Of a stretch of DNA of 31,903 nucleotides, positions 11,306 to 27,503 are shown piece by piece. The notes under the pieces were generated by a model. That model was not told where the DNA came from. It was given only the letters and a program-made list of their open reading frames with translations, and did not search any database. Every line of letters begins with the position of its first letter. The stretch's first letter is position 1. Both the position numbers and the translations under genes were made by a program. This DNA comes from a virus (lineage: Duplodnaviria > Heunggongvirae > Uroviricota > Caudoviricetes). The stretch is taken from the IMG/VR virus record IMGVR_UViG_648276649_000004. One strand, 5' to 3'.

Positions 11306-11639
11306 CGAGATTAAAGTGCATTAGTTCAGATGCAAATTGACATTTTGTGGCACAGGGTAGAGCTAGCGTGGTTGTCCGCTTTGTGCCAAGAGCAGACGCT
11401 GGTAATTCGTGCCTAATATACTTCACTTAACTTATATCCCAGCTTTGATACAGATCATACAAATTAAATGCCCCAGTAATTGGCAGGCTGAGTAACTTAA
11501 AACTCCTTAGAATATAGGATGATTTGTATCGGCACTCATTCCACCATGCATTCCGATTAACCCCGCATAGCCAGTTGAACTTTGCTACTCTGTGAGAGGT
11601 AGTACCTTCTATCCAGTGCGGATTTAATTAATGGAATAA

Positions 11640-13643
11640 ATGATTATGAGTGAAAATGATACAACCCCAAAGAAGTCTACAAGCCAGATTAACAAAGCGG
11701 TATTCTTTACATCTGCTTTGCTAATTTTCCTTCTTGTCGCCTTTGCCGCCGTATTCCCGGATGTCGCCGACAAAAATTTTAAACTACTTCAGCAACAAAT
11801 CTTCACGAATGCCAGCTGGTTCTACATACTTGCTGTGGCCCTGATTTTACTGAGCGTCACGTTCCTTGGACTCTCACGTTACGGTGATATAAAGCTGGGC
11901 CCAGACCATGCGCAGCCTGATTTCAGCTACCACTCCTGGTTCGCGATGCTTTTTTCGGCAGGGATGGGGATCGGCCTGATGTTCTTTGGCGTTGCCGAAC
12001 CTGTGATGCATTATCTTTCGCCACCTGTCGGCACTCCAGAGACCGTTGCGGCAGCGAAGGAAGCCATGCGCCTGACGTTCTTCCACTGGGGTCTGCACGC
12101 ATGGGCAATTTATGCCATCGTGGCGCTGATTCTGGCCTTTTTCAGTTACCGTCACGGTCTGCCTTTAACGCTGCGTTCTGCGCTCTATCCCATTATCGGC
12201 GATCGCATTTACGGGCCTATAGGCCACGCGGTTGATATCTTCGCCGTGATAGGCACTGTCTTTGGCGTTGCAACATCGCTGGGTTACGGTGTATTGCAGG
12301 TGAATGCCGGTTTGAACCATCTTTTCGGCGTGCCCATCAATGAAACGGTACAGGTCATTTTGATCGTGGTCATCACGGGGTTAGCGACGATTTCGGTGGT
12401 GTCCGGCCTGGACAAGGGAATACGCATCCTGTCTGAGCTTAATCTGGGCCTGGCGGTGTTGCTCCTGGCGCTGGTCTTGTGCCTGGGTCCCACTGTGCTT
12501 CTGCTGAAGTCATTTGTGGAAAATACGGGTGGTTATCTGTCGGAACTGGTGAGTAAAACGTTCAACCTTTACGCGTATGAACCCAAGTCGAGCAACTGGC
12601 TGGGGGGCTGGACATTATTATACTGGGGATGGTGGCTTTCATGGTCGCCGTTTGTAGGTATGTTCATTGCACGCGTTTCCCGCGGCAGGACAATTCGTGA
12701 GTTCGTGACTGGCGTGTTGTTTGTTCCCGCCGGCTTTACGCTCATGTGGATGACGGTGTTTGGAAACAGCGCCATCTATCTCATCATGAACCAGGGCGCC
12801 ACTGACCTCGCCAATACCGTTCAGCAGGATGTTGCGCTTGCCCTGTTTAATTTCCTGGAGCATTTCCCGTTCTCTTCCGTGCTGTCATTCATTGCAATGG
12901 CGATGGTCATCGTCTTCTTTGTAACGTCTGCTGATTCGGGGGCAATGGTTGTGGATACTCTGGCATCAGGTGGGGTGGCAAACACGCCCGTCTGGCAGCG
13001 AATTTTCTGGGCATCGCTCATGGGCGTTGTTGCTATTGCCCTGCTGATCGCAGGGGGGCTGAGTGCGTTGCAAACCGTAACGATAGCGAGTGCATTGCCC
13101 TTCTCAGTTATCTTATTAATATCCATATACGGACTGTTAAAAGCCCTGCGTCGGGATTTGACCAAGCGTGAAAGCCTTAGCATGGCGACTATTGCTCCTA
13201 CGGCTGCACGTAACCCAATTCCCTGGCAGAGAAGGTTACGCAATATCGCGTATTTGCCGAAGCGCTCTCTTGTGAAACGTTTTATGGACGACATTATCCA
13301 ACCCGCCATGACGCTGGTTCAGGAGGAACTTAACAAGCAGGGAACGATAAGCCACATCAGTGACGCCGCCGAGGATCGTATTCGCCTTGAAGTCGATTTG
13401 GGCAACGAGCTGAATTATATATATGAAGTGAGGCTTCGCGGGTATAACTCACCGACCTTCGCGCTCGCTGCGCTGGATAATGATGAGCAGCAGAGTGAAC
13501 AACATCGATATTATCGCGCTGAAGTCTATCTCAAAGAGGGCGGCCAAAATTATGATGTAATGGGCTGGAATCAGGAACAGCTGATTAATGACATACTGGA
13601 CCAGTACGAAAAACACCTGCACTTCCTGCATCTGGTTCGTTAA
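11640..13643 (+). CDS. BCCT-family transporter, BetT-like (choline / glycine betaine type), 667 aa
   Basis: Multi-span membrane protein with BCCT hallmarks (GIGLMFFGVAEP, WTLLYWGWWLSWSPFVG, ARVSRGRTIREF) and a BetT-like cytoplasmic C-terminal extension ending ...DILDQYEKHLHFLHLVR. Confidence 0.85.
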   Translation: MIMSENDTTPKKSTSQINKAVFFTSALLIFLLVAFAAVFPDVADKNFKLLQQQIFTNASWFYILAVALILLSVTFLGLSRYGDIKLGPDHAQPDFSYHSWFAMLFSAGMGIGLMFFGVAEPVMHYLSPPVGTPETVAAAKEAMRLTFFHWGLHAWAIYAIVALILAFFSYRHGLPLTLRSALYPIIGDRIYGPIGHAVDIFAVIGTVFGVATSLGYGVLQVNAGLNHLFGVPINETVQVILIVVITGLATISVVSGLDKGIRILSELNLGLAVLLLALVLCLGPTVLLLKSFVENTGGYLSELVSKTFNLYAYEPKSSNWLGGWTLLYWGWWLSWSPFVGMFIARVSRGRTIREFVTGVLFVPAGFTLMWMTVFGNSAIYLIMNQGATDLANTVQQDVALALFNFLEHFPFSSVLSFIAMAMVIVFFVTSADSGAMVVDTLASGGVANTPVWQRIFWASLMGVVAIALLIAGGLSALQTVTIASALPFSVILLISIYGLLKALRRDLTKRESLSMATIAPTAARNPIPWQRRLRNIAYLPKRSLVKRFMDDIIQPAMTLVQEELNKQGTISHISDAAEDRIRLEVDLGNELNYIYEVRLRGYNSPTFALAALDNDEQQSEQHRYYRAEVYLKEGGQNYDVMGWNQEQLINDILDQYEKHLHFLHLVR

Positions 13644-13650
13644 CAGCAAC

Positions 13651-13679
13651 ATGCCGCCACAGAGGCGGCATTTATTTAT
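13651..13679 (+). terminator. Rho-independent terminator after the BCCT gene
   Basis: atgccgcc-acagag-ggcggcat hairpin followed by a TTTATTTAT tract, 8 nt after the stop codon. Confidence 0.6.
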
Positions 13680-13706
13680 CCCGGCTGCAATATGAGGGAA
13701 TGCAGA

Positions 13707-14984
13707 ATGATTTCACGCTGGAAATGGATGCTGAAGCAGACATTTAAAAAACTATGGTTCAGGGCAACGTTATTCGCAATTGTCGCAATAATAACGGCCC
13801 TTTTATCAATTCTTTTTAAATCAATGATACCTGAGTCGGTTTCCGTGAAGGTTGGTGCGGAAGCAGTCGATAACATTCTGAACATACTGGCATCGAGTAT
13901 GCTGGCAGTGACCACATTTTCGCTGAGCATCATGGTCACAGCCTACGGTTCAGCCACTACTAATGTGACTCCCAGAGCTACTCGTTTAGTTGTTGAAGAC
14001 GTCACCACACAAAATGTACTGGCCACCTTCATCGGTTCTTTTCTCTTCAGTCTGGTAGGGATTATTGCCCTCAATATGGGAGCTTATGGAGAAAGGGGGA
14101 GAGTCATTTTATTCATTGTAACACTGGTTGTCATTGCCTTAATCCTCATCACATTGCTTCGCTGGATACAGCATTTGACCTCTCTGGGGAGGGTTGGTGA
14201 GACAACGGCAAAAGTAGAACAGGCGGCCATCGAAACATTTATTGCGAGAGCAAGAAATCCCTGTCTCGGCGGATATCCATGGCTTGAGAACAATGAACAG
14301 CCGAAAGGAACGGTTGCAGTTTATCCGAAAAAGATTGGCTATGTTGAATATGTTGATATGGTGAAACTCAGCAAGCTGCTGACCAATGATCCCCGTCATG
14401 TATACCTCGTGGCGCAGCCGGGCAGTTTCATACATCCGTCCACGCCAGTTTTGTACCTGAGTCAGGGCCAGGAGTCATCAATCAGCACCGATTTACTTGA
14501 GACGATTATTGTCTCGGATGTACGTTCATTTGCTCAGGACCCCCGATTTTGTCTTAGCGTCATGGCCGAAATAGCCTGCCGAGCCCTTTCCCCCGCAGTG
14601 AACGATCCTGGAACCGCCATTGATGTCATTGGCAGAGGTGTACGTATACTTTCCGCTTACGCGCAGAATAAATCTGATGAAATAGAAGTGAAATATCCTT
14701 CTGTACATGTTGCACCACTTCAGAATAACGATCTACTTGAAGACTTTTTCTCACCTGTTGCGCGCGATGGTGCCAGTATGAGGGAAATTCAGATAAGGGT
14801 ACTTAAAGGACTGTCGATGCTGAGTAAGGGTTGGCCTGGAATTTTTGCTGAAGCCGCACAAACCCTAGCATTTGAAACATTAGAGCATGCTACTCGTGCT
14901 GACCATATAGATTCTGACAGATATCTAATAAAATCAATTTATTATAATTTATTTAGTGGCGAAGATTCTAATAAAAAACCATAG
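13707..14984 (+). CDS. Polytopic membrane protein with a large soluble C-terminal domain (recalled as DUF2254-type); function unknown
   Basis: GAGGGA ribosome-binding site 7 nt before the ATG at 13707. The N-terminal roughly 160 aa contain several hydrophobic helices; the C-terminal roughly 270 aa are soluble. Family assignment is from memory and unverified. Confidence 0.65.
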   Translation: MISRWKWMLKQTFKKLWFRATLFAIVAIITALLSILFKSMIPESVSVKVGAEAVDNILNILASSMLAVTTFSLSIMVTAYGSATTNVTPRATRLVVEDVTTQNVLATFIGSFLFSLVGIIALNMGAYGERGRVILFIVTLVVIALILITLLRWIQHLTSLGRVGETTAKVEQAAIETFIARARNPCLGGYPWLENNEQPKGTVAVYPKKIGYVEYVDMVKLSKLLTNDPRHVYLVAQPGSFIHPSTPVLYLSQGQESSISTDLLETIIVSDVRSFAQDPRFCLSVMAEIACRALSPAVNDPGTAIDVIGRGVRILSAYAQNKSDEIEVKYPSVHVAPLQNNDLLEDFFSPVARDGASMREIQIRVLKGLSMLSKGWPGIFAEAAQTLAFETLEHATRADHIDSDRYLIKSIYYNLFSGEDSNKKP

Positions 14985-15114
14985 TTGCGGAGCAAGCGAT
15001 ACGGTTGTTGGCAAGTCAAGGGCAAAGCATTCGCGTGAGAGTGGGCGTCTGCTTTGTGCCAGAAGCGGACATACGTAACTTATGATACGCATCGCCAATC
15101 ATCCGTTTCAAACA

Positions 15115-15996
15115 TCAACGCGGAAACGTTTTAAGAATGTAATCCCGAACATAGGCGGTTCGGCTGTTATTAGCCGTCCTTTTGTTCCAGACCAGATAAA
15201 GATGATTAGTCGGAGCGAGGTCTGCAGGTGTCACTGAAATCAGGCGACCACTTTTCAGGTCATTGTCACAGTGATAATCCGGCAGCACTGTCCACCCGTG
15301 GCCGTCACAGACCAAGTCGCGGATAATACGTAAATCCGGAATGGTGAATGTAGCCTGCATCTCAGGGGCTCTCTGAAACATGGAGGCCCAGAGCGCTCTA
15401 ATCAGTGGCAACTCTTCGTCATAAGCAATCAGCGGTAATGAGGCAAGCGTTTCAGCACCAGGTTCTGATCCGATGATCTCTGACATGGCGGGAGCATGAA
15501 CAAGGAGCATGCGTTCAGTCAGTAGATGTGCATAGCCGTACAGACGGTCATCAGGCATAGATGCGGTAACAGCGAGATCGGCGCTCCCGTCATGCAAAAG
15601 GGAATAAATACGTTGCTTATTGCCGGTATGAAAGCGTAGGCGATACCCCTCCTTCATTAGTGGAGCCATTACTGTCCCAAGCCGGGAATGAATAAAATCT
15701 GGCGGTCCTGCCAGATTAATTGTTCCCCCACGTACAGAGCCTGACCGGAAAGAGGACAGCTTTTCTTCCAGACCATCAATGAAGGGTGAAACTGAGCGGG
15801 CAAGCTCATCCGCAGCTTCGGTTGCCGTCACGCCTCTGGCCTGCCTGATAAACAGACGCTTACCAACCAGAGTCTCAAGAGACTGGATATGCTGTGACGC
15901 CGCGGGCTGAGTGATGCCCAGTAGTTCTGCCGCCTTTGAAAAGGAGCCAGAGCGATAGGCCTCAAGAAACGTTCGCAGATGGCTCAGATGGCTCAT
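15115..15996 (-). CDS. LysR-family transcriptional regulator, 293 aa
   Basis: N-terminal HTH (MSHLSHLRTFLEAYRSGSFSKAAELLGITQPAASQHIQSLE) and a LysR substrate-binding domain; the start overlaps the stop of the upstream ChaC-like gene. Confidence 0.85.
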   Translation of the reverse strand: MSHLSHLRTFLEAYRSGSFSKAAELLGITQPAASQHIQSLETLVGKRLFIRQARGVTATEAADELARSVSPFIDGLEEKLSSFRSGSVRGGTINLAGPPDFIHSRLGTVMAPLMKEGYRLRFHTGNKQRIYSLLHDGSADLAVTASMPDDRLYGYAHLLTERMLLVHAPAMSEIIGSEPGAETLASLPLIAYDEELPLIRALWASMFQRAPEMQATFTIPDLRIIRDLVCDGHGWTVLPDYHCDNDLKSGRLISVTPADLAPTNHLYLVWNKRTANNSRTAYVRDYILKTFPR

Positions 15997-16685
15997 AGTG
16001 AAGCGCCTCGCTGATGAAGTTTATCGTTACAGGGAGCCTCATGCAGAGCAAGGGCCAGTTCACTCACGTAATCATCCCGTATTCCCAACGCACCCAGAGT
16101 GGCCTGCAGTTTCCATACATAATCTGCATTCGTGCCAATGTCTCCACGGGCAGATGCGATGCTCAACGCTACGGTCGCTGTAAGATTGTCCTGTTCATAA
16201 TGCGGATGCAGTCTGTCTGATACGAAAGCCAGCGCCTGAATTTCCTTACCGTTTCCTAGCGAAACGTCTGCCCAGACCGGACGGTAAAGACCGGTTATCA
16301 TCTCGCGCGTCCAGACAATTTCCAGCTCATTAATAAGAGTCGATTCCGGCAGTCTGAACGCAATACCTTCGGTAATTCCACCTTCGTCGAGCGATAACAT
16401 CCTGCCGGGGACATCAGGAGTCGCTCGTCCGGATATCAAACGAATGCAGAAACTGCGCTGCCATCCTTTCAGACGGGCCCGTTGCATTTCTTCAATCGCC
16501 AGCACGGGATTCCACATCAATGACCCGTAGGCAAATATCCAGACAGGAGCACCCGTCGGGCGCTCCTCCAGAGTAGAGTTCATTGATGCGCGTATTTTTT
16601 CAGCGTCCCAGAGCATATTCGCCGGGAGCAGCGCTTCATGCACCCTGACAAATGTGCCATTAAGCATATTTTCACGGGTAAGCAT
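15993..16685 (-). CDS. ChaC-like gamma-glutamylcyclotransferase family protein, 230 aa
   Basis: Contains the YGSLMWNP motif and overall ChaC-like architecture; GGGAGG ribosome-binding site upstream of the ATG at 16685. Confidence 0.75.
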   Translation of the reverse strand: MLTRENMLNGTFVRVHEALLPANMLWDAEKIRASMNSTLEERPTGAPVWIFAYGSLMWNPVLAIEEMQRARLKGWQRSFCIRLISGRATPDVPGRMLSLDEGGITEGIAFRLPESTLINELEIVWTREMITGLYRPVWADVSLGNGKEIQALAFVSDRLHPHYEQDNLTATVALSIASARGDIGTNADYVWKLQATLGALGIRDDYVSELALALHEAPCNDKLHQRGASL

Positions 16686-16696
16686 ATAACCTCCCT

Positions 16697-17896
16697 TTAC
16701 TGGCCTACGATTTTAACCTGTTGAAATTTACGACTGTGGCTGCGACGGATTTGTGCAAGCAGCAACAGCAGGCCGAGCAGAGAAACAATCGCACCGCTGA
16801 TACCGGTATACACGATACCGGCGTGGCTTATAGTAATGCTGCCCAGTACTGATCCCAGCGCTATACCTGAGTTGAAGCCCGCAATATTCAGGCCGGCAGC
16901 AACACCATGCGCATGAGGAGCATGTTGCTCAGCGACACCAATCAGACGGGCCTGCAGTGCCGGCACTGCGGCAAATGTCACCATACCCAGCAGCGCAACC
17001 AGAATGCCCATGCTCACCGGTGAGGATGACAGCAGCCACATACCAAGCACGACAACAACAATGCCGCTAATGATGAGTATATTGGCACGATTAACCCCCA
17101 TGCTGTCGGTAAGTTTCCCACCAAGAATATTACCTACCGCAGCTGTAATACCGTAAACCAGCATAAACAGACTCACCGTTGCTCCGGTAACCCCTGTCAC
17201 CTGCGTCAGAATAGGTGCGATAAAGGTGTAATCCGTAAACGAGCCTGCATACGCCAGCACCGTAACCAGCGCGCCGGCCAGCAACTTACGGTTAAACAGC
17301 ATGCCGATATTCTGCATTGCTGAGTCACTATGTTCACCGGGCACGCTGCGTACGGGATCTTTCATACCGAACAACAGTCCAAGGAATCCGAACGCGCCAA
17401 AAGCGGCAATAGCGCCGAGAACTGGACGCCATGAGACCACCCCCCCCAACCATGTACTCAGCGGTACGCCGATTGCCATCGCCAGAGTAAAGCCACCAAA
17501 TACCACAGCCACCGCTCTGCCTGCTTTACCCGGTCCAGCAAGACGAGCTGCGGTACTGGATGCCGCAGCCAGAAACAGGCCGTGTCCCAGACCAGCAATG
17601 AACCGCGCTAACAGGAGCTGAGGTAATGTGGCTGCAAACGCGGCCGCCAGACTACCGGCAGTAAACACAACGGCAGTTGTAAGCATTACATTTTTCCGGC
17701 TCCAGCTTGCTGTCAGCGCAGACAGTACGGGTGCCGCGAACGTTGCCCCCAGTGCATAGGTTGTAACCGCTGCCCCGGTCTGCTCCACACCCACACACAA
17801 CCCCTGAGCCATAACGTCTGTCAGCCCAATGGGGACAAATTCCGCGAGTCCGAGCGCAAAGGCACTGATAGTAAACACATAAATAACAAATGGCAT
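16697..17896 (-). CDS. MFS transporter (12-TM efflux-type permease), 399 aa
   Basis: Highly hydrophobic 399-aa ORF with an MFS-like layout; AGGAG ribosome-binding site 6 nt upstream of the ATG. It forms a same-strand cluster with the ChaC-like and LysR genes. Confidence 0.85.
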   Translation of the reverse strand: MPFVIYVFTISAFALGLAEFVPIGLTDVMAQGLCVGVEQTGAAVTTYALGATFAAPVLSALTASWSRKNVMLTTAVVFTAGSLAAAFAATLPQLLLARFIAGLGHGLFLAAASSTAARLAGPGKAGRAVAVVFGGFTLAMAIGVPLSTWLGGVVSWRPVLGAIAAFGAFGFLGLLFGMKDPVRSVPGEHSDSAMQNIGMLFNRKLLAGALVTVLAYAGSFTDYTFIAPILTQVTGVTGATVSLFMLVYGITAAVGNILGGKLTDSMGVNRANILIISGIVVVVLGMWLLSSSPVSMGILVALLGMVTFAAVPALQARLIGVAEQHAPHAHGVAAGLNIAGFNSGIALGSVLGSITISHAGIVYTGISGAIVSLLGLLLLLAQIRRSHSRKFQQVKIVGQ

Positions 17897-18315
17897 GACT
17901 GGCTCCTGATTTAAGTAAGGAGTGCAGTCTGATTTAGAAAAACAGATAAATAAAATAATGTAAACTTCAGGCGGGATAAAATTATTTATATCTAAGGCAA
18001 AGATTCAATATTCCCACAGCACACAGAAGTTTTCTGTCTTCAGGGAGAGGAGCTTCGAAAGTTCAGACGAAAAATTCCTGCGGCCCCTTTAAGAGTCAGT
18101 TGGCCGGGTTTGGTCCGCTCCTCGCTCAAAGCGGACTAGAAGGTTAGCTTGCGTCGGACTTGGCGTATTTAAAGAAGTGCTGGTGGTGACTGGTTGTTGT
18201 GTTCCATTTCTACAGAACAAAATCACAGAAACTATACCCAATAGTTATATTGAATCAATGATGAGACAGCCTCATATTTATCAGAACTGGTGTACGTCCA
18301 ATACAGGAGGTTGTC

Positions 18316-18405: not shown

Positions 18406-18619
18406 TTACATACTGGCTAGAAAAAAGGTGTTACCTTGGTTTATCTTTGTCCGGCAAGGTGCGCTCATTAATCTTAAGTAAATTTATTGCTCAAGTATTC
18501 AGATTACTTCTTATGGTTGAAGTCTCCTGTCAATGTAGAACCAATATATTTACAAAAATGAGACCCGTCGGGGATAGCCCTGCCGGGTCTGACTGTTAAA
18601 GCATTTTTAATATGATCAT

Positions 18620-21656: not shown

Positions 21657-22242
21657 CTGGTTTATTGTATGCCAAATGATTATTAAAAAGGTTGTGTTAA
21701 TAACAAAATCCGAAATAATATGCCTGCATATTTTTATCTTGCTTATATTCTGCATATTGTGCATAGCAGGCTCATCCCTGCAATCAAAACTGTATGATGA
21801 GTATTTTTTTTTCCTTTTTTCCAGTCATCTGATGATGACCTGCTTCTTTTTAATCCGGATCGACATCAGTTTTTTAAGATAATTCCTGCGAGTTATATGC
21901 ATAAATACCACAAACTCCGCATTTTATGTGGTTGGGAGTTGCCGGGCGCGCAGTGAGTTTGCTAAGAAAACTCCTGCATGGTGAATCCCCCTGTGCGGTG
22001 GGGTGATACCATTAACCTTTTCTGTCGCCGACAGGTATCACGAACATTTTGTTCACCGGGAGGCACCCGGCACCATGCACTTCAATAGATTCTCTCCACA
22101 TTATGGATATTCTTTCAGAATATCCCACGCAGACTTTGTGTAAATGTTAACAAATGTGCGTTTTATTTGATCTGATTCGCTGTTTGAGCGTCCAAAACAA
22201 CGGTATATATAATCCTTTACTATATGACATATGTGAGGAAAA

Positions 22243-22671: not shown

Positions 22672-22821
22672 TATTTATTGTTTTGTAATAAACGGTTTCG
22701 GCTTAGGTTTGTTCTGACACAGCTACGGCACTGAGCTAAATTTAGCGGATAGTCAGCTCTGAGCCAGTGGCGGACGTAACAACTACTATTGCTGAGATTT
22801 TAATGGATTGAGGAGCAAGAA

Positions 22822-26192: not shown

Positions 26193-27503
26193 ATGGGTTT
26201 TTCATCAGCCCGAAATTTGGGAAGGGACATATCGGCAGGATTTTCCCCACCACGTCGCATGCCGATTTCGGAGGCTGTTAAAAAATTCATGCGTGTTCCC
26301 AAGGGGGCTGGTAACTCGGTGCCATGGGATCCTGAACTGACACCCTACATCATTGAGCCCATGAACTGCCTGGCATCGCGTGAATACGATGCGGTGATTT
26401 TTGTTGGTCCTGCGCGAACAGGGAAGACCATTGGTCTGATCGATGGATGGATTGTCTATACCATCGTTTGCGATCCTTCGGACATGCTCGTTGTGCAGAT
26501 GACCGAAGATAAGGCCCGCGAGCATTCTAAAAAGCGCCTCGACAGAACGTTCAGAAGCAGTGCGGCGGTAAAGAAAAGAATGAGTCCACGTCGTAACGAC
26601 AATAATGTCCATGATAAGACGTTCAGGGATGGCTCGTTCCTTAAAATTGGTTGGCCCTCGGTCAACATTATGTCGTCGTCGGATTACCGGTTTGTCGCCT
26701 TAACCGATTACGACCGTTTTCCGGAGAATATCGACAGCGAGGGTGATGGTTTCTCCCTGGCCTCAAAACGTACCACCACATTTATGTCCGCCGGGATGAC
26801 TCTGGTGGAGAGCTCGCCGGGACGTGACATCTGCGACAGCAAATGGCGACGTAAGTCGCCTCATGAAGCGCCACCGACGACTGGTATTCTTTCCCTTTAC
26901 AATCGTGGTGACCGCCGCCGCTGGTACTGGCCATGTCCGCACTGCGGTGAATATTTTCAGCCAGCTATGGATGCCATGACCGGCTACCGTAATGAACCGG
27001 ATCCCTTTAAAGCCAGTGAGGCGGCGTATCTACTTTGCCCACACTGCAGCGGCATTATCACTGCGGAGAAAAAGCGTGAGCTCAATAGTGCAGGAGTCTG
27101 GTTGCGTGAAGGTCAGGTCATTGATCGTAACGGCAACGTTTCCGGTGAACCGCGCCGCTCCCGTATCGCCAGTTTCTGGATGGAAGGGCCAGCTGCTGCG
27201 TATCAGGCCTGGGCGCAACTGGTTTACAAATTACTGACTGCAGAACAGGAGTATGAAGCGACAGGAAGAGAAGAAACACTCAGGGCGGTTATCAACACCG
27301 ACTGGGGATTACCTTATCTTCCCCGCGCCAGCATGGAGCAACGAAAAAGTGAACTGCTTGAGCAGCGGGCAGAGCCAGTTCCTTCCCGCAGTGTGCCAGA
27401 TGGCGTTAATTTCCTTGTGGCGACAGTGGATGTGCAGGCGGGACGTCATCGCCGTTTTGTGGTTCAGGTACCGGAGTCGGAAGTTGCCGGACCCTGCAGA
27501 TGA
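26193..27503 (+). pseudogene. Terminase large subunit (lambda gpA-like), C-terminally truncated at about 430 aa
   Basis: AGGAGG ribosome-binding site. The N-terminal ATPase region is present (Walker A-like VGPARTGKT), but the frame ends after ...[18 protein letters not shown], where a full-length lambda-type large subunit would continue for roughly 200 more residues. Confidence 0.75.

Follow-up and report, generated by a model that had tools for sequence, protein, structure and literature searches.

What fixes the edges of the cargo that a prophage carries, and how can one and the same set of cargo genes come to lie in phage backbones of unrelated type? This question is raised by a window of 31,903 nucleotides (IMG/VR record IMGVR_UViG_648276649_000004, a tailed-phage record), which is a segment of the Escherichia coli chromosome carrying a degraded rac-type lambdoid prophage adjoining ttcA. 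The interval from the DUF977 gene to the nin/Q genes of this prophage is a cargo hot spot that holds two cassettes, and an initial annotation of the window had pointed to an imperfect direct repeat of about 32 bp on either side of the first of them, a BCCT transporter gene followed by a gene for a membrane protein. We have compared these repeats, whose core is a 24-nt palindrome, with their relatives in other genomes. The comparison shows that the copies of the palindrome coincide exactly with synteny breakpoints, at which cargo cassettes appear to be swapped between otherwise unrelated E. coli prophages.

The two 32-mers occur precisely at 11374-11405 and 15047-15078 and agree in 24 of their 32 positions when counted position by position, the agreement being 20/24 in the palindromic core. 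This core can be written as GTCYGC-TTTG[T/A]GC[C/G]ARRA-GCRGAC, or GTCYGC-TTTGNGCNARRA-GCRGAC, and consists of 9-bp inverted arms (GTCYGCTTT / RRAGCRGAC) around an asymmetric 6-bp centre, of which there are two classes, GTGCCA (class T) and GAGCGA (class A). The similarity is above chance: a degenerate search with the 24-mer, in which up to three mismatches were allowed, returned three sites in the window versus 0.00 expected from 100 dinucleotide shuffles, and a covariance model built from 78 related copies matches both reported copies (Table 1). The same model also matches a fourth, degenerate copy (22748-22779, 20.5 bits, E=2.7e-5). Both reported copies are intergenic, as had been stated. 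Copy 1 lies 68 nt past the DUF977 stop codon and about 243 nt ahead of the BCCT start, and copy 2 lies 62 nt past the stop codon of the membrane-protein (DUF2254) gene, in the convergent junction with a LysR gene. The pair of direct copies does enclose exactly the BCCT and DUF2254 genes; what the initial annotation overlooked is the larger unit, in which a third, inverted copy of class A closes the hot spot.

A scan of IMG/VR with the 24-mer pattern gave at least 120 contigs, and the counts of prophage loci reported below come from the matches listed. The 5' flanks of the unique copies fall into a few conserved classes and their 3' flanks are hypervariable. When the window was aligned by megablast with the other prophage loci, the alignments ended at 11388-11398 in at least 31 loci, at copy 1, and resumed at 18112-18122 in at least 35 loci, at copy 3. 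In at least four loci they ended at 15069-15072, at copy 2, with cassette 1 in common and a different second cassette. Between the conserved left and right flanks the hot spot has at least 16 different contents, ranging from 1,032 to 6,763 bp. At their left end the listed segments carry a plus-strand T site, with the exception of one locus (L078) that has no left site within three mismatches; at their right end all of them have a minus-strand A site, which in several loci is degenerate. The BCCT-DUF2254 unit, which measures 3,673 bp from start to start, is followed by five different sequences across the loci.

Such exchanges reach across backbone types. A locus with a lambdoid replication module (L039; DnaC-like ATPase, DUF1627 and DUF977) and a P2-like locus (L067; sheath FI, tube FII, G and H) have as their sole similarity a segment of 1,033 bp with 99.7% identity, which opens with base 1 of the T site and closes where the A site ends, the T sites matching each other and the A sites likewise. 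In the same manner a rac-type locus (L069) and a P2-type locus (L045) have 1,631 bp in common at 99.6% identity, starting from an internal T site. The suggestion that the repeats are cassette boundaries of a mobile module is thus well supported by synteny that breaks at the repeats, by the alternative contents and by near-identical cassettes in unrelated backbones. The empty site with a single repeat copy, which had been suggested as a check on this idea, was found in none of 5,426 E. coli genomes. The nearest to an empty hot spot is that of strain A20, a 269-bp deletion remnant that lacks one half of the right hairpin. The absence of empty sites fits replacement of the cargo rather than its insertion and excision.

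The analysis of the variable positions along the palindrome allows the exchange to be placed within it. There are 198 pairs of copies whose left flanks agree (at least 85% identity) and whose right flanks are unrelated. Within these pairs the two copies carry one and the same base at position 4 in 99% of cases, at position 11 in 100% and at position 14 in 89%; positions 16, 17 and 21 are at background, with identity in 39%, 35% and 62%, versus 43%, 41% and 71% in fully unrelated pairs. In three reciprocal pairs, with the same right flank and unrelated left flanks, it is position 4 that differs, and the copies match from position 11 to the end. The left half of the element thus tracks the backbone and the right half tracks the cargo, which places the crossovers inside the hairpin. 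From the sequences compared, the exchange takes place between positions 5 and 15, a stretch that is invariant within a class. The classes themselves are nearly unmixed, the combinations T..C (43 copies) and A..G (51 copies) at positions 11 and 14 accounting for 94 of the 97 unique prophage copies and other combinations for three.

Table 1. Palindrome copies, conserved backbone modules and cargo cassettes in the window
Feature	Position	Strand	Description
Copy 1, class T	11374..11397	+	GTCCGC TTTGTGCCAAGA GCAGAC; left edge of hot spot; covariance model E=1e-13
Copy 2, class T	15047..15070	+	GTCTGC TTTGTGCCAGAA GCGGAC; boundary between cassettes 1 and 2; covariance model E=2e-13
Copy 3, class A	18113..18136	-	GTCCGC TTTGAGCGAGGA GCGGAC (minus strand); right edge of hot spot, facing inward; covariance model E=4e-10
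Copy 4, degenerate, hybrid loop GAGCCA	22752..22775	+	GTCAGC TCTGAGCCAGTG GCGGAC; between two cargo genes for TolA C-terminal domains
Left backbone module, conserved	11329..11373	+	contains TGGCACAGGG at 11348-11357
Right backbone module, conserved	18137..18181	-	plus strand tagaaggttagcttgcgtcggacttggcgtatttaaagaagtgct; beside class-A hairpins in many loci
Cassette 1	11398..15046	+	BCCT transporter 11640-13643; DUF2254 membrane protein 13692-14984
Cassette 2	15071..18112	-	LysR 15115-15996; ChaC/gamma-glutamylcyclotransferase 15993-16685; MFS transporter 16697-17896

We propose, with a probability of roughly 45%, that the palindrome is a portable 24-bp recombination site and that the exchange is directed by its sequence through a trans-acting enzyme. 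The T site after DUF977 and the inverted A site before nin/Q enclose the hot spot, and the internal T site separates the two cassettes. According to this proposal a site in the resident prophage would recombine with a site of like class that flanks a cassette in a P2-like phage, a lambdoid phage, a plasmid or a chromosomal island, with the crossover falling in the invariant centre at positions 5-15. A crossover at each end, T and A, would then suffice to swap the cassette, no other homology being needed. The arms would be recognised by the enzyme acting in trans, and the two centre classes would represent mutually incompatible sites, thus fixing the orientation of the cassette. The geometry of 9-6-9 in E. 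coli and 11-6-11 in other bacteria, together with the nearly unmixed centres, resembles that of tyrosine-recombinase core sites with heterospecific spacers. The finding of the same 24-mer in Alpha-, Beta- and Gammaproteobacteria, among the matches listed, also speaks for the proposal.

Several observations weigh against such an enzyme-directed exchange. The crossover is resolved only to an identical stretch of 11 nt, and recombination through short homology would give the same picture. Hybrid centres exist, although they are rare (GAGCCA, in P2-EC31 and in copy 4). No genome was found in which the backbone is joined directly to cassette 2, so that no product of stepwise insertion is at hand, and no circular intermediate was found. 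Furthermore, no recombinase or transposase recurs beside the sites, the clustering of adjacent proteins bringing out just an ABC substrate-binding protein. An iterative search with a hidden Markov model of tyrosine recombinases gave two matches in 120 non-phage loci, which is no enrichment, and a tblastn search for the transposases associated with repetitive extragenic palindromic (REP) sequences, known as RAYT, found nothing in about 250 loci with an approximate E. coli RAYT sequence as query. Compared by eye with what we take to be the E. coli dif sequence, the arms have no match and no XerD arm is present.

The same crossovers would also be expected from a short-homology exchange, in which the palindromes serve as universal homology arms for annealing recombinases of the RecET/Red type or for RecA; we hold this to be possible, though somewhat unlikely. 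The arms would persist since elements that keep the consensus gain and donate cassettes more often. The recET genes of rac are present in this very window, no site-specific recombinase is associated with the sites, and hot spots that are never empty fit replacement by a double crossover. Rad52-like phage recombinases tolerate short and diverged homology, and in many pairs the conservation extends beyond the hairpin, as in the P2 repeats of 91-113 nt and in a leader of about 45 nt that ends in GGGAGCAGGTCA. However, lambdoid and P2-like backbones have just the 24-mer in common, which is very short for such pathways, and we know of no annealing recombinase of this kind encoded by P2. Exchange through short homology also leaves unexplained the palindromic arms, the nearly unmixed centre classes and the conservation of the 24-mer in Alpha- and Betaproteobacteria.

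The hairpin that had been noticed at both repeats was confirmed on folding, but it is weak, with a stem of 6-9 bp. The minimum free energies of copies 1-3 are -10.1, -13.2 and -14.1 kcal/mol as RNA (z = -0.4, -1.9 and -2.6 versus shuffles) and -2.9, -5.2 and -7.2 kcal/mol as DNA. This stability is unremarkable, and the significance of the element therefore rests on the conservation of its sequence. In 106 distinct sequences 92.7% of the cells are paired, which equals the shuffled expectation, and the covariation is 0.135 versus 0.135 in shuffles. At pair 4/21, 25% of the cells are mismatched, a level that fits an origin of the two halves in different parents. The element is a sequence palindrome and not an RNA selected for its structure. 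The sole hint of a folded single strand is that the motif strand favours G.T over A.C (30 vs 9 and 41 vs 18), with R preferred opposite the TTT of the 5' arm.

The further possibility raised in the initial annotation, that the repeats are paired regulatory or terminator sites, was not supported. Rfam contains no family matching the sites, either at the gathering threshold or at E<=1. A terminator scan made no call overlapping copies 1-3, which lack a T-tract and are followed by variable sequence, and a promoter scan found nothing at these three copies. An intrinsic terminator is ruled out by the former scan, a promoter role like that of the PeSL elements by the latter, and a structure-selected RNA by covariation that does not exceed that of shuffles. 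A 5'-untranslated element for the cargo is ruled out by the orientation of the downstream genes, 39 of which are co-oriented with the palindrome and 44 opposed. PeSL, the promoter-early stem-loop of mobile regulatory cassettes, is a repeated motif of T4-type phages that, as reportedly described by Arbiol and colleagues in 2010, flanks novel open reading frames in hyperplastic regions and was proposed to act in modular shuffling. The element studied here is likewise a repeated stem-loop flanking variable cargo; it differs in that no promoter is detectable beside the hairpins, in its occurrence in temperate phages and in its unrelated sequence.

On these data we regard as improbable a passive REP-like element of gene 3' ends, that is, an mRNA-stabilising or terminating hairpin or a site for a host protein, which would lie only incidentally at the edges of cassettes. 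Its location would suit such a role: 91 of 99 unique prophage copies are intergenic, convergent gene pairs outnumber divergent ones (24 vs 9 and 22 vs 10), and copies are often found 17-70 nt past a stop codon. The element is present in high copy in Alphaproteobacteria, a chromosomal BCCT-DUF2254 pair retains the hairpin outside a prophage, and the excess of G.T over A.C points in the same direction. However, the three sites lack a T-tract or terminator call, the thermodynamic stability is unremarkable, Rfam gives no match, and pair 4/21 is frequently mismatched with no compensatory covariation. In addition, hairpin halves that come from different parents mean that recombination occurs inside the element and not merely near it.

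Terminal inverted repeats of non-autonomous transposons, similar to miniature inverted-repeat transposable elements and served by a transposase in trans, are very improbable, for although inverted copies stand at both cassette ends, segments common between phages include both complete 24-mers and there is a partial likeness to the terminal repeat of the insertion sequence (IS) IS600, GTCCGCTATTGCCAG, position 4 of the hairpin stays with the backbone and not with the cassette, no target-site duplication is visible on inspecting the flanks, all alternative cassettes lie in exactly one site and no transposase family co-occurs.

The palindrome of the window can be related to repeats that were annotated earlier in P2-like phages. 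A 69-nt query made of one flank class and the hairpin matched 59 phage records, all of them P2-like, among them P2 and the partial records AJ512676-AJ512682, the latter carrying at the matched position the annotation 'repeat_region', 'right inverted repeat'. Three of the records, AJ512676, AJ512677 and AJ512680 ('proviral Z-region'), place variable open reading frames between an annotated left repeat (3-115) and an annotated right one measuring about 91 nt, and in P2-EC31 the left repeat ends on the last base of the hairpin. P2 itself carries a T copy, GTCCACTCTGTGCCAAAAGCGGAC, behind gene G, and the A-class copies stand ahead of FI; the A copy of P2 is degenerate, sits immediately upstream of the F promoter's activator site and is separated from the T copy by fun(Z). 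The element of the window constitutes the inner core of both inverted repeats, left and right, of the P2 Z (Z/fun) region (GenBank AJ512676-AJ512685), here in its lambdoid-prophage instance. The 24-mer occupies the inner end of the repeats in P2, P2-EC31 and P2-EC46, and an inward-facing T...A pair surrounds variable lysogenic-conversion or defence genes there as copies 1 (+) and 3 (-) surround the cargo here; whole cassettes are also common to the Z region and the lambdoid hot spot. The two differ in place, between the tail genes G and FI in P2 and in the replication-to-nin interval of a rac-type prophage here, and in the internal third site of the window, which makes a two-cassette array.

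By our own reading of the sequences, the left backbone module also appears homologous to the P2 'left inverted repeat'. Within this module, TGGCACAGGG is complementary to CTTTGTGCCA (11379-11388), which takes in the last part of the 5' arm of copy 1 together with most of its loop; the hairpin cannot form at the same time as this pairing. In P2 the equivalent place is occupied by TGGCACAGAG / CTCTGTGCCA, so that the pairing has been kept through one-sided changes; it may represent a decayed inverted copy of the hairpin or an alternative structure. In 24 cases, among hairpins of either class (for example at 12466-12510 of locus L008 and 116-159 of L244), the hairpin has a conserved leader after it, RTTGCTAAC...TGTGAATCAAC...GGGAGCAGGTCA, and GGGAGCAGGTCA stands at a fixed distance of 31 nt, mostly in the orientation of the hairpin. 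The hairpin, the intervening stretch of about 31 nt and GGGAGCAGGTCA together gave no consistent fold. In P2-EC31 the right-end 12-mer is inverted relative to its own hairpin, resulting in a direct repeat around the cargo.

The Z-region records originate from Nilsson, Karlsson & Haggard-Ljungquist 2004 (Mol Biol Evol 21:1), the title of which proposes site-specific recombination, and later papers on hot spots cite this work just for variable loci and leave the repeats unmentioned. A literature search by sequence string gave nothing relevant. Thousands of P2 and P4 elements were surveyed in a 2026 study, which describes as still open how cassettes are swapped between mobile elements of unrelated type; it weighs only homology of flanking genes, transposons and illegitimate recombination, does not bring up the repeats and reports that P2 hot spots are likewise never empty (PMC13586616). 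Boundary repeats of this kind have been annotated in P2-like phages since 2004. The present study adds two further copies in the window (the third and fourth), maps the crossover to the centre of the palindrome, and shows identical cassettes between sites in lambdoid and P2-like backbones and a wide distribution of the element in proteobacteria.

Among known systems of cargo exchange, pdif modules of Acinetobacter plasmids have cargo flanked by inversely oriented XerC/XerD sites and move between unrelated replicons. They have in common with the present sites two arms and a 6-bp centre, placed in inverted orientation around cargo, with halves that segregate with their own flanks; the 11-6-11 geometry of dif and pdif is that of the non-enteric copies, the E. 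coli form being 9-6-9. On comparison by eye, however, the present sites show no sequence similarity to dif/pdif, and nothing was seen that ties Xer to them. Integron attC sites also delimit cargo units by an imperfect palindrome with the crossover inside, and form arrays of direct copies, as do copies 1 and 2 here and the copies in several proteobacterial loci. In contrast, attC sites measure 57-141 bp and are conserved in structure, whereas the present element measures 24-28 bp and is conserved in sequence, and the RYYYAAC/GTTRRRY boxes are not found in the required order around its core. There is no intI or attI nearby, the only tyrosine recombinase of the window being IntR at the end of the prophage, and the hot spots end in an inverted site. 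An attC site is ruled out by the size, the absent boxes and the lack of an adjacent integrase or attI. REP sequences, their assemblies into bacterial interspersed mosaic elements (BIMEs) and REPINs are similarly short imperfect palindromes of two alternating types and orientations, intergenic, with a bias to gene 3' ends and, like our element in Alphaproteobacteria, high in copy in some genomes. Those of E. coli have another sequence and occur in hundreds of copies per genome, versus 1-6 here.

In E. coli, 3,604 of the 5,426 genomes carry from one to six copies (median 1), 193 of them on plasmids. The proposal that the repeat is a dispersed REP-like element is therefore borne out in Alphaproteobacteria, where many copies are present, and not in E. 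coli. The single copy of K-12 lies in the Qin prophage (L249 5001-5028), inside the annotated 'ydfV' and about 110 nt upstream of relBE-hokD, and marks the edge of the relBE-hokD cargo in Qin's equivalent hot spot; the rac prophage of K-12 has no copy. Deposited phages with copies include P2-like, lambdoid (Evi, Tritos, mEp460) and Stx1a- and Stx2c-converting (Shiga toxin) phages. In other contexts, again by our own reading, copies appear to be placed 17-25 nt past umuC and 24 nt past an SRAP-like gene. One plasmid copy adjoins a DUF1778-GNAT toxin-antitoxin pair.

Some 1,500 E. coli genomes have a chromosomal copy of BCCT-DUF2254, 94% identical, which adjoins acuR and lies near the fec operon (in E. 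coli strain 10, L251 4001-7533, beside fecE). IS elements truncate this copy on its upstream side; a degenerate hairpin, GTATGCTTTGTGCCAAAAGCAAAC, comes after it, and there the similarity to the window stops. It is likely the source or a sister of the prophage cassette. The terminal inverted repeat of the adjacent IS600 (L251 3965-3993), GTCCGCTATTGCCAGTACACCTCA, resembles the 5' half of the palindrome, GTCCGCTTTGTGCCAG, a likeness that may be a coincidence.

Outside the enteric bacteria, the GTDB loci (L123-L242, among the matches listed) belong mostly to Alphaproteobacteria (Pseudolabrys, Bradyrhizobium, Xanthobacteraceae), with others in Betaproteobacteria and other Gammaproteobacteria. The non-enteric form is a 28-bp palindrome, ATGTCCGCTTT-N6-AAAGCGGACAT. 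In Alphaproteobacteria it is intergenic, with many copies per genome and a bias to gene 3' ends. A sister hairpin (loop ACCCCCG or GGGTCA) often stands some 20 nt upstream of a non-enteric copy, so that the two make a doublet, and such copies frequently lie directly past the stop codon of genes for ABC substrate-binding proteins ending in ...ADEVIE. A wider generalisation, which we consider rather doubtful, would see in the 24-28 bp palindrome a universal docking site at which a trans-acting enzyme exchanges cassettes among lambdoid and P2-like phages, plasmids and chromosomal islands, in an integron-like manner but without a linked integrase, the sites having been amplified in a REP-like fashion in Alphaproteobacteria.

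Much of the E. coli cargo that serves anti-phage defence, toxin-antitoxin systems and niche adaptation resides in prophage hot spots. The junctions of the cassettes are not arbitrary, one short palindrome being found at the breakpoints in both lambdoid and P2-like hot spots; on the plasmid and the chromosomal island it also adjoins cargo modules, which is a matter of adjacency and not of mapped breakpoints. The palindrome may serve as a sequence tag for the automatic detection of cargo boundaries in hot spots, and through a defined site the mechanism of exchange becomes directly testable.

The prophage genes ahead of the cargo are intR, xisR, ralR with the RalA RNA, recT, recE, kilR, sieB and the repressor region, followed by a YdaT-like gene, a replisome organiser of 358 amino acids and DUF977. 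In cassette 1 the Pfam E-values are 7e-199 for BCCT and 2e-92 for DUF2254, and the RefSeq names agree. Downstream of the cargo are DUF1367, DUF1364, a Q-like DUF1133 protein, lysis genes and remnants of terminase and tail-fibre genes. The two TolA-like genes that flank copy 4 lie between the Q-like gene and the lysis genes, which is the position of the toxin genes in Stx phages, and 3' of this copy a leader-like stretch ends in a GAGGAG ribosome-binding site and the GTG start of the second TolA-like gene. The prophage is defective: at 26193-28306 the large-terminase open reading frame breaks off with its nuclease domain incomplete, directly next to a gene for a tail-fibre collar, most of the head and tail genes being deleted.

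A second cluster of alignment ends is located at about 18417-18420, between copy 3 and a DUF1971 gene (30 loci among the matches listed), where several E. coli strains carry an IS3 element. Targeting of the hairpin by IS3 is ruled out by the distance of the insertion, about 290 bp away. Elsewhere in the window Rfam matches RalA (2337-2515), STnc100 (21946-22132) and IS009 (28649-28847). Many E. coli chromosomes match the segment 9000-19500 (10.5 kb) at 100% identity, and a coverage of 80% or more is reached in 281 of the 5,426 complete genomes.

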